Origin: Escherichia coli
GTDB taxonomy: Bacteria; Pseudomonadota; Gammaproteobacteria; Enterobacterales; Enterobacteriaceae
DNA: 64,000 nucleotides
NCBI RefSeq assembly: GCF_044324785.1
Contig: NZ_CP172127.1
Reading direction: 5' to 3' (one strand)
Numbering within the stretch: the stretch's first letter is position 1; each line of letters starts with the position of its first letter. Under the pieces are notes generated by a model. That model searched no databases, had not been told where the DNA came from, and saw nothing but the letters and a program-made list of their open reading frames with translations. Below are positions 20,526-34,659 of the stretch, piece by piece. The translations under genes were made by a program, and so were the position numbers.

Positions 20526-20661
20526 GCAACCTTAACATATTTTGAGAATATAAAACAACTGTTGGAATATATTATTTCATTGCTTTATTGATAACGATTT
20601 TCATTTAGATTTATATATCAATGAAACGTTAAAATAAATAACAAATAAGGGAAGGGGTAAT

Positions 20662-20718
20662 ATAGCCTAAGCTATGTCTGATTATTAAAAATACACTAAA
20701 CATAGCTTTGGCTAAATT
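20662..20718. promoter_or_regulatory. Two MntR-box-like palindromes upstream of the mntP leader
   Basis: ATAGCCTAAGCTAT (perfect 5-bp arms) at 20662-20675 and AAACATAGCTTTGGCTAAATT at about 20698-20718, resembling the AAACATAGC..GCTATGTTT MntR operator. Confidence 0.45.
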
Positions 20719-20724
20719 GATAAC

Positions 20725-21183
20725 TTATTGAGTTGAAACGAGAAGCTTATAAATTTTTTCCAGATCGTCGATATTTCGAACGCGGATTAACAGCCGACGC
20801 TGTTCTAATTGCATCACCAACACGCCATCTTCCGACAAGTTCATCGCTTTGATTCGGCTATATTCAATCCAGACATTGGCGAAGAAAAAACCTTTTTGTT
20901 TAAAGATGATCTTCGGAACGCGGATCCAGAATATATAAAAACCCATCAGAGCCAGTGCACTTAATAACCATGTTGTTATTAGCGCGCCATGATTCGTGAC
21001 GTTGTTATAGATAAGAATGACAATCAATCCGACGAAGATAACGCTATCGATGCGACCACGCCGGAGCAAAGGAATTGCCAGCAGAGTGGGGCCGTTACGG
21101 CGGGGCATGATGAACTGATCGTAGATCGCGAAGGCCAGGAGTGCGGCGATGAAAAGAATCAGTACCAGGTCCGTGATTGTCAT
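20725..21183 (-). CDS. yobD: Inner membrane protein YobD (UPF0266)
   Basis: 152-aa hydrophobic [43 protein letters not shown]... Confidence 0.85.
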
Positions 21184-31252: not shown

Positions 31253-31432
31253 ATGTTTGCAGGTTTACCTTCACTCACCCATGAACAGCAGCAAAAAGCC
31301 GTCGAGCGGATCCAGGAACTGATGGCACAAGGGATGAGCAGCGGCCAGGCAATCGCGCTGGTGGCAGAAGAGCTGCGTGCCAACCATTCCGGCGAGCGAA
31401 TCGTGGCGCGTTTTGAGGATGAAGACGAGTAA
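31253..31432 (+). CDS. yoaH: UPF0181 small protein YoaH (59 aa)
   Basis: Hand translation [59 protein letters not shown] with CAGGAG Shine-Dalgarno; track shows only the antisense ORF. Confidence 0.8.
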
Positions 31433-31486
31433 CACACTTATCCGTATCGTTTTCGTTATAGAAGCCGATGGTTATTTGATTGTGAG

Positions 31487-31527
31487 AAAAAGGACGCTTT
31501 TCATATGTGATTAAAAGCGTCCTGACC
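31487..31527. terminator. Hairpin terminator between convergent yoaH and yoaC
   Basis: aggacgctttt-catatgtgatt-aaaagcgtcct 11-bp stem; on the minus strand it is followed by a T-run, so it is best supported as the yoaC terminator. Confidence 0.65.
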
Positions 31528-31551
31528 CATTTATGCTGATGTAAATTTAAC

Positions 31552-31851
31552 TTAGACCAGTGCTTTTAGTTCTTCCTGCATATATGTTGAAAAGTATTCA
31601 GGATTTTTAATCACAGAGCGTTCACCTGTCTCCATTTTTTTTGCCCATCCAACCATTTTTTCCGTGAACCCAGGGTTCCAGCCTTCCTGGTCAGCTCGCG
31701 CCGTAATATCAGCGGCACTCGCGGGTACTCCCAGTTCTTTTAAATATTTAAAGATTCCCTTCGCCGTGCTTTCATTCATCGAACTTGGTGTTGGCGCTGA
31801 TACATCCATGGCACCAATGAAATCCAGGGCTTTATCTATTACAGCAGGCAT
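31552..31851 (-). CDS. yoaC: DUF1889 protein YoaC
   Basis: Track ORF 31552..31911 trimmed to MPAVIDKALDFIGAMDVSAPTPSS... (99 aa). Confidence 0.8.
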   Translation of the reverse strand: MPAVIDKALDFIGAMDVSAPTPSSMNESTAKGIFKYLKELGVPASAADITARADQEGWNPGFTEKMVGWAKKMETGERSVIKNPEYFSTYMQEELKALV

Positions 31852-32272
31852 ATTCTTATCCTTAAAATTAACCATGTTATCGATAAGGCTATATATGACC
31901 TTAATTTGCATCTAATATCAAAGGGATTATAACGATATGGCACGAGTTAACCTGTTGACATTCAGGTGTTTTAAAGGTAGCAGCTCATGGTGTGTTATCC
32001 AGTAAGAGGGAGAAAATTAACGGTCAGTCCGCACGCTATAACCAAATTGTTCAGCTAAGAAAGAAAACCAGAGATGCTAATCGAAGGGTGAACACAACGG
32101 CATTGTTATGTTTATTTATATAGTTAGTTTTATAGCTAAAATTGAAATTATAAAAATAAATAATGAATTAGCAGGAGCATCAACAGTAATATCTTAATCT
32201 CTGGTCGATTTATGTAAAACCGACCAGTATTATCGATAAATTATCGTCTGACTTATTTTGCTTCGATAAAGC

Positions 32273-32617
32273 TTACACCGCAGCCACAATCTTAATTTCA
32301 ACTTTATACTTCGGGTTCATCAAACCCGCTTGTACCGTGCAGCGCACCGGCGCATGACCCGCGACAACCCAGGCATCCCACGCTTTATTCATCGCCGCGA
32401 AGTCGTTTTTATCGGCCAGGAAAATGGTGGCATCCAGAATGCTCGATTTATTGCTGCCCTGTTTTTCCAGCACGGCGTCAATCTGCGCCAGCGTGTTGGC
32501 GGTTTGCTCAAAGGCATCGGCGTCGAGGTTTTCCGGTACACCAGTGTAGTAGAGCGTGTTGTTGTGGATTACTACATCAGACCAGCGGGCTTCAGCATCG
32601 ATACGAACGATAGTCAT
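32273..32617 (-). CDS. yoaB: RidA/YjgF-family protein YoaB
   Basis: Track ORF 32273..32665 trimmed to MTIVRIDAEARWSDVVIHNNTLYYTGVPENLDADAFEQT... (114 aa). Confidence 0.8.
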   Translation of the reverse strand: MTIVRIDAEARWSDVVIHNNTLYYTGVPENLDADAFEQTANTLAQIDAVLEKQGSNKSSILDATIFLADKNDFAAMNKAWDAWVVAGHAPVRCTVQAGLMNPKYKVEIKIVAAV

Positions 32618-32748
32618 CATTTTGTCCTCATTATACTTCCATTTTCGTGCTGCAAAGACTGCCACAATGTGAGGTCGCCGTCACCACTTCAACTGGCGAA
32701 AGCGCCCTCATCCTGACATAATCCCTGTTCAAATCAACAGGGGGTAGT

Positions 32749-34659
32749 GTGACGGACGATTTTGCACCAGACGGTCAGCTGGCGAAAGCGATACCAGGCT
32801 TTAAGCCGCGAGAACCACAGCGACAGATGGCGGTAGCCGTCACCCAGGCGATAGAAAAAGGCCAGCCGCTGGTGGTGGAAGCAGGAACCGGTACGGGCAA
32901 AACCTACGCTTACCTGGCCCCTGCGCTGCGGGCGAAAAAGAAAGTCATTATCTCGACCGGCTCAAAAGCGTTGCAGGATCAGCTCTACAGCCGCGATTTG
33001 CCAACAGTCTCAAAGGCGTTGAAATATACGGGCAACGTGGCGTTGCTGAAAGGGCGCTCAAACTACCTCTGCCTCGAACGTCTCGAACAGCAGGCGCTGG
33101 CGGGCGGCGATCTGCCGGTACAAATCTTAAGCGATGTGATCCTGCTGCGCTCCTGGTCTAATCAAACAGTCGATGGTGATATCAGCACCTGCGTCAGCGT
33201 GGCGGAAGATTCACAGGCGTGGCCGCTGGTCACCAGCACCAACGACAACTGTCTTGGCAGCGACTGCCCGATGTATAAAGATTGCTTTGTGGTCAAAGCA
33301 CGTAAAAAAGCGATGGACGCCGATGTGGTGGTGGTAAACCATCATCTCTTTCTGGCGGATATGGTGGTTAAAGAGAGTGGATTTGGCGAGTTGATCCCGG
33401 AAGCGGACGTCATGATCTTCGACGAAGCCCATCAGCTACCGGACATTGCCAGCCAGTATTTTGGTCAGTCACTCTCCAGTCGACAACTGCTCGACCTGGC
33501 AAAAGACATCACCATCGCCTACCGCACCGAATTAAAAGACACCCAGCAGTTACAAAAGTGCGCTGATCGTCTTGCCCAGAGTGCGCAGGATTTTCGTCTG
33601 CAACTCGGTGAGCCAGGTTATCGCGGTAACCTGCGTGAGCTGTTAGCTAATCCGCAAATTCAGCGGGCATTTTTACTGCTCGATGACACCCTGGAACTTT
33701 GTTATGACGTGGCGAAACTGTCACTGGGGCGTTCCGCCTTGCTGGATGCGGCATTTGAGCGCGCCACGTTGTATCGCACACGGCTGAAGCGGCTAAAAGA
33801 GATCAATCAGCCGGGCTACAGCTACTGGTACGAATGCACTTCGCGCCATTTTACTCTGGCTCTCACGCCGCTCAGCGTGGCGGATAAATTCAAAGAGTTA
33901 ATGGCGCAAAAGCCCGGTAGCTGGATCTTCACCTCAGCAACGCTGTCGGTGAACGACGATCTGCATCATTTCACCTCGCGGCTTGGGATAGAACAGGCGG
34001 AGTCGTTGCTATTGCCAAGCCCGTTTGATTACAGCCGCCAGGCGTTACTCTGTGTGCCGCGCAACCTGCCGCAAACCAATCAACCGGGCTCCGCACGGCA
34101 ACTGGCGGCAATGTTGCGACCGATCATCGAAGCTAACAACGGTCGTTGTTTTATGCTTTGTACCTCGCACGCCATGATGCGCGATCTGGCCGAGCAGTTC
34201 CGCGCTACCATGACGCTTCCCGTTTTGTTGCAGGGGGAAACCAGCAAAGGGCAACTGTTGCAGCAATTTGTCAGTGCCGGTAATGCGCTTCTTGTGGCAA
34301 CCAGTAGTTTCTGGGAAGGGGTGGACGTGCGTGGCGATACATTGTCATTGGTAATTATCGACAAATTGCCGTTTACCTCGCCGGATGATCCACTGTTAAA
34401 AGCGCGCATGGAAGATTGTCGTTTGCGCGGTGGCGACCCGTTCGATGAAGTACAACTGCCGGATGCGGTGATTACTCTCAAGCAGGGAGTAGGGCGACTG
34501 ATTCGCGACGCCGACGATCGCGGCGTGCTGGTGATTTGCGATAATCGGCTGGTGATGCGCCCTTACGGCGCGACGTTTCTCGCCAGTCTGCCGCCCGCGC
34601 CGCGCACCCGTGACATTGCCCGTGCGGTTCGCTTCCTTGCGATACCATCCTCCAGGTAA
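32749..34659 (+). CDS. yoaA: DinG-family ATP-dependent DNA helicase YoaA
   Basis: 636-aa ORF with Walker A (GTGKT), DEAH box (DEAH) and an Fe-S-type Cys cluster region; recognised as YoaA. Confidence 0.9.
   Translation: MTDDFAPDGQLAKAIPGFKPREPQRQMAVAVTQAIEKGQPLVVEAGTGTGKTYAYLAPALRAKKKVIISTGSKALQDQLYSRDLPTVSKALKYTGNVALLKGRSNYLCLERLEQQALAGGDLPVQILSDVILLRSWSNQTVDGDISTCVSVAEDSQAWPLVTSTNDNCLGSDCPMYKDCFVVKARKKAMDADVVVVNHHLFLADMVVKESGFGELIPEADVMIFDEAHQLPDIASQYFGQSLSSRQLLDLAKDITIAYRTELKDTQQLQKCADRLAQSAQDFRLQLGEPGYRGNLRELLANPQIQRAFLLLDDTLELCYDVAKLSLGRSALLDAAFERATLYRTRLKRLKEINQPGYSYWYECTSRHFTLALTPLSVADKFKELMAQKPGSWIFTSATLSVNDDLHHFTSRLGIEQAESLLLPSPFDYSRQALLCVPRNLPQTNQPGSARQLAAMLRPIIEANNGRCFMLCTSHAMMRDLAEQFRATMTLPVLLQGETSKGQLLQQFVSAGNALLVATSSFWEGVDVRGDTLSLVIIDKLPFTSPDDPLLKARMEDCRLRGGDPFDEVQLPDAVITLKQGVGRLIRDADDRGVLVICDNRLVMRPYGATFLASLPPAPRTRDIARAVRFLAIPSSR

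Follow-up and report, generated by a model that had tools for sequence, protein, structure and literature searches.

What does the AT-rich non-coding DNA between yoaC and yoaB in Escherichia coli do? The window, the whole 64,000-nucleotide stretch of E. coli DNA analysed here (contig NZ_CP172127.1 of assembly GCF_044324785.1), has pabB, yoaH, yoaC, yoaB and yoaA at this locus, and the three features that frame the question are the following.

32617-32273, minus strand: yoaB.
31851-31552, minus strand: yoaC, 99 aa in the K-12 and RefSeq annotation.
31852-32272: the yoaB-yoaC gap, 421 bp, 33% GC, equivalent to K-12 1893712-1894132.

Conversion between K-12 and window coordinates is linear, as the two gaps align without indels. 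The first-pass annotation had begun the gap at 31912, presuming a 119-aa yoaC open reading frame from an ATG at 31911. That ATG is AGG or ACG in other Escherichia species, the frame there is broken by a 2-nt deletion, and the K-12 and RefSeq start lies at 31851; the gap proper therefore spans 31852-32272. Of 5426 complete E. coli genomes, 5356 contain at least 80% of it, mostly as a single copy (median of one place per genome), and full-length coverage is missing in 55 of 5411 matching genomes. Neither K-12 nor the sampled records among these 5411 genomes carry any annotation of the gap. The earlier statement that the interval has no assigned function is thus correct for genome annotation and incorrect for the literature, in which YeiE, YhaJ, RNA polymerase and Term-seq data have been published; most elements of the gap, while unannotated, can be found in genome-wide datasets already published. 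The best explanation, with a probability of about 0.75 for the whole, is that the AT-rich gap is an ordinary composite non-coding regulatory spacer made of several elements rather than one.

The origin of the gap becomes apparent from comparison of the locus across genera. The gap is part of a larger segment that contains a terminator shared by yoaH and yoaC, the yoaC gene, and the 421-bp gap with the yoaB hairpin described below.

31433-32272: AT-rich insertion specific to Escherichia, 840 bp, 37.6% GC, between the convergent core genes yoaH and yoaB.
31485-31527, both strands: bidirectional terminator hairpin AAAAAGGACGCTTTT...AAAAGCGTCCT between convergent yoaH and yoaC, inside the insertion.

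Only 0-7 bp lie between the stop codons of yoaH and yoaB in Salmonella enterica, the Klebsiella/Raoultella group, Citrobacter and Enterobacter, compared with 840 bp here. The segment has the marks of acquired DNA in that it is AT-rich (37.6% GC vs 52-53% in the 5-kb flanks) and is absent from the yoaH-yoaB junction of the four other genera. Homologues of yoaC are found in Buttiauxella, Citrobacter and Lelliottia, none of them adjoining yoaB, yoaH or pabB. On sequence comparison, the gap is the yoaC-upstream arm of a small foreign insertion, found in Escherichia only, that placed yoaC between yoaH and yoaB, and this foreign origin is the simplest explanation of its AT-richness. No terminal inverted or direct repeats were found at the ends of the 840-bp segment, and no phage similarity was detected in it; matches to 'plasmids' were rejected, as these were mislabelled chromosomes or covered the yoaC coding sequence only. 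Deletion of yoaC has been reported to sensitise cells to boric acid.

The YoaC protein of the window is 100% identical to that of K-12, while the window pabB is 99.3% identical to that of strain Rb-50 vs 97.1% to that of K-12, and the nearest gap sequence is that of Rb-50, with 3 differences vs 12 to K-12. These similarities suggest recombination mosaicism around the islet. At the yoaH end, Term-seq 3' ends flank the yoaH/yoaC hairpin at K-12 1894457 (minus), which is 31527 (plus) in the window, and at K-12 1894497/8 (plus), which is 31486/7 (minus); a Rho termination region with a score of 3.16 lies antisense to yoaC at 31552-31611 (K-12 1894397, K-12 minus strand; Adams et al. 2021, PMC7815308). 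The yoaH-side 3' end falls 4 nt past the stem and is not followed by a U-tract, as at yoaB. The antisense Rho region would be yoaH read-through stopped by Rho inside the islet.

Of the elements within the gap, the one nearest to yoaB is defined by an RNA structure and a mapped transcript end.

32228-32272, minus strand: first 45 nt of the yoaB 3' UTR, from stop codon to hairpin; 1 of 45 columns is variable in 8 E. coli sequences, and the segment is partly conserved genus-wide.
32201-32227, minus strand: conserved RNA hairpin with an 11-bp stem including one G.U pair and a 5-nt loop, 45 nt past the yoaB stop codon.
32197, minus strand: mapped RNA 3' end (K-12 1893787, plus strand), 4 nt past the stem and 76 nt past the yoaB stop codon.

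A hairpin with a 7-bp stem had been noticed at 32203-32229; the structure is real, its position is 32201-32227, and on the plus strand the stem extends to 10 bp with one A.C mismatch. The minus strand replaces this mismatch with a G.U pair to give an uninterrupted 11-bp RNA stem with a dG of -15.5 kcal/mol (z of -5.3), a stability reached in 0 of 200 shuffles, and the plus-strand hairpin is weaker owing to the mismatch. The bare 7-bp stem occurs in 53% of dinucleotide shuffles of the interval and its length alone is therefore not significant; the reality of the hairpin rests on conservation, covariation and the mapped RNA 3' end. Among seven related Escherichia sequences (E. coli, E. albertii, E. 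whittamii and cryptic lineages), a small sample for covariation, 94% of cells are paired and two pairs display compensatory double changes, whereas sliding the partner by 1-3 columns as a control leaves only 7-43% paired. The wobble pairs found across species are G.U on the minus strand, in yoaB-sense orientation, and would be A.C on the plus strand, which argues for a sense-strand RNA structure over a protein operator. The eight E. coli sequences compared are invariant at the outer ten stem pairs, and one strain has an altered innermost pair; the remaining variants fall in the loop or at the 3'-end position. A separate 9-nt complementarity between 32067-32075 and 32197-32205 showed no covariation in other species and was treated as chance.

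Mapping of transcript 3' ends on both strands had been proposed as a check of the interval, and published data provide it. The Term-seq list of Adams et al. 2021 (eLife, PMC7815308; Supplementary file 1) has one 3' end in the gap, at K-12 1893787 on the yoaB-sense strand, and no other on either strand. This end is classed as 'orphan' and appears three times, matching three growth-condition tabs; the flanking sequence printed for it is the hairpin at 32201-32227. With a conserved hairpin and a 3' end 4 nt past it, the hairpin marks the 3' end of the yoaB mRNA. In E. coli the stem is not followed by a U-tract, the 8-nt tail AGAGAUUA (AGAGAAUA in K-12) containing only one or two U, and a scan of 31400-32800 returned 0 terminator-like sites.

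How yoaB transcription ends is thus a question of what happens beyond the hairpin, where two further features lie.

31999-32196: variable AT-rich spacer, whose yoaB-sense RNA is untranslated and richer in C than in G.
31965, minus strand: bicyclomycin-sensitive 'Rho termination region' (K-12 1894019, plus strand), of low resolution, with 800-nt score windows.

Transcription of yoaB continues 45 nt past the stop codon into the 11-bp hairpin, and in published Term-seq the stable 3' end is 4 nt beyond the stem. As the E. coli stem has no U-tract behind it, most polymerases would run on into the untranslated C>G spacer RNA; Rho would then stop them short of the yoaC promoter, and exonucleases would trim the RNA to the hairpin. 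This combination of Rho action in the spacer and subsequent exonucleolytic trimming is the preferred reading. Dar and Sorek are said to have described in 2018 how Rho-dependent mRNA 3' ends are trimmed back to a protective stem-loop. The spacer offers at least ~80 nt of untranslated, C-rich and G-poor RNA with no conserved open reading frame, as expected of a Rho substrate; over gap positions 77-308 the sense RNA has 48 C vs 30 G. The Rho region lies ~230 nt downstream of the Term-seq end, which itself is 4 nt past the stem, an arrangement that fits a stable end upstream of a termination zone. The published region has a score of 3.15, a p value of 2.4e-6 and read counts of 92, 41, 67 and 94 (Adams et al. 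2021, Supplementary file 2, PMC7815308, where Rho-dependent ends trimmed to stem-loops are also discussed). A signal of this kind, built from 800-nt windows and tens of reads, could equally reflect de-repression of yoaC under bicyclomycin.

The main alternative is weak, non-canonical intrinsic termination of yoaB at the hairpin, where RNA polymerase would stop without Rho and the +4 end would be the true point of termination. This reading is the less probable one and is a serious competitor all the same: a stable, conserved hairpin is directly followed by a mapped 3' end with three Term-seq entries, the stems of sister lineages have GUGUUUUAG or GUGUUUAAG after them and an A-tract before them and so resemble a bidirectional terminator, and the neighbouring yoaH transcript ends in the same dataset at the same distance from a hairpin that likewise has no U-tract. 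It is opposed by the U-poor E. coli tail, by a terminator scan that calls no site, not even in the sister lineage whose tail is richer in U, and by the Rho-sensitive region downstream in the same gap. Far less credible is the proposal that the gap encodes an unannotated small RNA, either a yoaB 3'-UTR-derived RNA ending at 32197 or a plus-strand RNA running from the AT-rich run (TTTATA-16-TAAAAT, 32115-32142) to the hairpin. Hfq-binding small RNAs carry a U-tail, and none is present here. The defined, abundant 3' end classed as 'orphan', the conserved hairpin and promoter-like matches on both strands could be taken as signs of such an RNA, but the promoter-like matches number 2 vs 3.4 expected from shuffles, the opposite strand has no Term-seq 3' end anywhere in the gap, the mismatched plus-strand hairpin is the weaker of the two, and the sequence from the AT-rich run to the hairpin is poorly conserved. 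An Rfam scan of the gap with E-values up to 10 gave only two chance-level matches, to unrelated families. Neither Rfam, promoter and terminator scans, Term-seq nor folding gave evidence of an independent or antisense small RNA in the gap. The small-RNA suggestion of the first-pass annotation is not borne out; the sole Term-seq end lies 76 nt past the yoaB stop codon on the sense strand of yoaB, and the simplest role for the hairpin, as the 3' end of the yoaB mRNA, had been overlooked.

A small-protein gene was likewise rejected, with no open reading frame in the gap conserved in start, frame and stop: 0 of 10 frames of at least 8 codons are kept in all other sequences, and one 8-codon frame inside the conserved block next to yoaC is kept in all sequences but one. 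A five-codon mini-ORF at 31988-31971 on the minus strand (ATG-AGC-TGC-TAC-CTT-TAA) reads M-x-C-Y-L-stop in seven of eight Escherichia sequences. The Rho coordinate at ~31965 is 6 nt downstream of this frame. No Shine-Dalgarno sequence is conserved ahead of it, so that the overlap of the mini-ORF with the operator-like block in that region is probably coincidental.

At the other end of the gap, the earlier suggestion of a promoter region for yoaC is supported by both conservation and published occupancy. The features of this end are as follows.

31919-31998, minus strand: conserved putative promoter/operator block; 3 of 80 columns are variable within E. coli, and the block is conserved genus-wide.
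31958-31947 and 31983-31959, minus strand: candidate LysR-box-like dyads TCAACAGGTTAA and CTGCTACCTTTAAAACACCTGAATG, respectively, their likeness judged by eye.
31931-31926, minus strand: predicted -10 element TATAAT with a poor -35; predicted transcription start site (TSS) near 31918.
31852-31918, minus strand: predicted yoaC 5' UTR of ~67 nt, with Shine-Dalgarno AAGGA at 31863-31859.

Conservation of the gap among Escherichia species is highest in the 150 nt adjoining yoaC, which include the perfect TATAAT. The -10 hexamer is identical in seven of eight Escherichia sequences and is GATAAT in the eighth. In comparisons across genera, similarity at the yoaC locus starts at a -10-like hexamer and runs through CYTTTGAT to GGTTAATTTTAAGGATAAGA(A/G)(T/C)ATG, and the proximal block 31919-31998 has no RNA-structure signal (z about 0). 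This pattern of conservation within E. coli, across the genus and, from the -10 onwards, between genera, in the absence of RNA structure, points to a predicted yoaC promoter and leader. The promoter would be activator-dependent, pairing a perfect -10 with a poor -35, and would start transcription near 31918 to give a leader of ~67 nt. Two-hexamer scans left it unranked, the weak -35 being the cause, and a composition-corrected sigma-70 matrix scan singled out no promoter in the gap. Relative to the predicted TSS, the dyads would fall near -35 (TCAACAGGTTAA) and -57, again as judged by eye. In ChIP-exo data, YeiE binds upstream of the RNA polymerase footprint at yoaC, for which no coordinates are given, and yoaC is the example of upstream-bound activation chosen by the authors (Gao et al. 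2018, NAR, PMC6237786). In the mechanism proposed here, the 150 nt adjoining yoaC would act as an activator-dependent promoter with LysR-type dyads near -35 and -57 and YeiE upstream of RNA polymerase, and the ~67-nt leader that follows the predicted TSS would supply a strong Shine-Dalgarno sequence.

The segment GGTTAATTTTAAGGATAAGAATATG (31849-31875, minus strand), which runs up to and includes the yoaC start codon, is nearly invariant in Escherichia, Buttiauxella, Citrobacter and Lelliottia, unlike the YoaC proteins of these four genera, which are only 66-75% identical; no RNA structure explains it. Such conservation could mark either a signal for translation or a binding site. With no covariation and z values near or above zero (-0.1 to +1.3), a structured leader of yoaC or an element like a riboswitch was rejected.

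The remaining part of the gap, its AT-rich middle, is the most variable and is bound by a second LysR-type regulator.

32111-32170: run of 60 nt with 90% AT.
32129-32144, plus strand: published YhaJ (LysR-type) box TTATAGATAAAATTGA, inside the AT-rich run; it reads TTATAGCTAAAATTGA here.
32233-32242, plus strand: perfect 10-bp match to the H-NS high-affinity motif TCGATAAATT (tCGATAAATT), beside the hairpin.

The run had been called the most AT-rich in the window, and 32111-32170 does rank first at the 40- and 60-nt scale across the 64 kb; at 100-200 nt the richer segment is ~20532-20731. That segment has 76.5% AT over 200 bp, more than the gap at the 100-200 nt scale. The AT palindromes within 32111-32170 are of the kind expected by chance at such composition. 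In the literature, yoaC is among the known YhaJ-regulated genes, and YhaJ ChIP-seq has intergenic peaks at yoaC with scores of 10.4 and 21.1 in EHEC and 7.2 and 2.3 in UPEC (Connolly et al. 2019, PNAS, PMC6765310; SI Tables S3 and S4). The peak centres lie ~280-305 bp from the annotated yoaC start, and the nearest T-N11-A box, TTATAGATAAAATTGA, is 65-66 bp from the centre (PMC6765310). With YhaJ ChIP-seq and YeiE ChIP-exo, the published record thus contains in vivo occupancy of this promoter region by LysR-type regulators. The copy of the YhaJ box in this strain has a substitution, C at 32136, that is absent from seven other E. coli sequences sampled, and the peaks lie far upstream of the predicted yoaC promoter, which is unusual for a LysR-type activator. 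A further sequence, TTATCGATAAATTATC (32230-32245), resembles by eye the boxes in the Connolly tables, as does the conserved dyad TCAACAGGTTAA near the yoaC promoter, and both may serve as a lead.

Variation within E. coli is concentrated in the spacer, which has 21 of the 31 variable columns among eight sequences, compared with 5 in the yoaC-proximal 147 nt and 1 in the yoaB-proximal 45 nt. In Escherichia sp. MOD1-EC7003 the gap is only 271 bp: it retains the hairpin and the promoter-proximal block and lacks ~150 bp that include the AT-rich run with the published YhaJ box. In E. coli strain D72, an IS1A insertion with an adjacent deletion truncates yoaC, which lacks its N-terminus, and removes the gap up to ~32193, and the yoaB hairpin is intact. 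The AT-rich middle would thus be a poorly conserved, dispensable upstream regulatory region, the part of the gap that YhaJ occupies in vivo in published ChIP-seq.

A nucleoid protein may bind there as well. The 10-bp high-affinity motif of H-NS was defined by Lang et al. 2007 (PMC2094087); the match beside the hairpin is the only copy in the 64-kb window and arises in 0.27% of composition-matched shuffles of the gap. In four of five other Escherichia species the motif, read from the alignment, is exact or has one mismatch. Matches with up to two mismatches number 4 vs 1.1 expected (p about 0.03), at a density equalled elsewhere in the window. Among the papers searched, none was found that links yoaC to H-NS silencing. 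From the AT-richness, the insertion origin and the one perfect motif, binding of H-NS to the gap is plausible, and the perfect nucleation motif suggests that H-NS would bind the AT-rich middle in addition to YhaJ. An extension of this proposal, itself doubtful, treats the distal half of the gap as a module for counter-silencing and insulation: H-NS would nucleate at TCGATAAATT and spread over the islet, YhaJ would activate yoaC mainly by displacing H-NS and not by classical contact with RNA polymerase, and the hairpin together with Rho would bar yoaB transcription from yoaC.

The data on the AT-rich middle could also be read in two other ways. One puts a distal promoter for yoaC, dependent on YhaJ, inside or close to the AT-rich run, with a leader of ~250-330 nt subject to Rho-dependent attenuation, so that the proximal block would be leader RNA. 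In its favour, YhaJ has its peak centres and its published box 220-300 bp upstream of the ATG, and there are promoter-like sites with a good -10 at 32152-32147 (TATAAT) and 32196-32191, the Rho region at ~31965 upstream of yoaC, and the mini-ORF kept in seven of eight Escherichia sequences. The distal -10 candidates, however, are not conserved beyond E. coli, one Escherichia lineage has the entire segment deleted and still retains yoaC, the proximal block gives no RNA-structure signal, and the mini-ORF has no conserved Shine-Dalgarno sequence. Conservation across genera begins at the proximal -10, as expected for a TSS just downstream of it, and the distal promoter is accordingly given little weight. 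The other holds that the AT-rich run is itself functionless, a decaying relic of the inserted DNA whose occupancy by protein is incidental. It draws on the highest polymorphism in the gap, the deletions in MOD1-EC7003 and D72, the lack of an open reading frame or RNA family, and a YhaJ box that lies 65 bp off the peak centre and is substituted in this strain. The YhaJ ChIP peaks are nevertheless reproducible in two strains, and the full-length gap is kept in 5356 of 5426 complete E. coli genomes, which makes a relic unlikely, if less so than the distal promoter. The preferred reading remains a composite spacer with the yoaB 3' end at one side, the predicted yoaC promoter at the other and a variable regulatory region between them.

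The significance of this reading beyond annotation is small. The yoaB 3' end and its hairpin, the YhaJ and YeiE binding regions, and the yoaC promoter could be annotated, and yoaB can be named as the source of the 'orphan' Term-seq end at K-12 1893787. A modest new point is evolutionary: yoaC would have reached Escherichia as an 840-bp AT-rich cassette, placed exactly between two convergent core genes, that came with its own leader and terminators. The cassette would provide a compact case of a single acquired gene that is insulated transcriptionally and wired to resident LysR-type regulators.

The elements of the gap resemble four known systems. Like the acquired AT-rich islets targeted by H-NS, the yoaC segment is a lineage-restricted insertion about 15 points below the GC content of its flanks and carries a perfect high-affinity motif; it differs in being very small (840 bp, one gene). 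With the LysR-type promoters, such as the YhaJ targets yqjF, ybiJ and yhhW and the targets of YeiE, the gap shares YhaJ and YeiE occupancy, boxes of the T-N11-A type, and a predicted yoaC promoter with the weak -35 and strong -10 typical of activator dependence. The difference is that the YhaJ peak and box lie ~200 bp upstream of the predicted core promoter rather than at the classical -65/-35. Intrinsic terminators are similar to the yoaB 3' end in having a covarying, G+C-containing hairpin directly 3' of the gene, a 3' end just downstream and, in sister lineages, a U-richer tail, but the yoaB hairpin has no U-tract in E. coli and fails the terminator scan. The yoaB end also has a counterpart among trimmed Rho-dependent ends. 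Although the Rho signal here is of low resolution and ~230 nt downstream, and the Rho dependence of the yoaB end is putative, the two have in common a hairpin with no U-tract, a 3' end a few nucleotides past the stem, an untranslated RNA downstream in which C outnumbers G, and a bicyclomycin-sensitive region further downstream.
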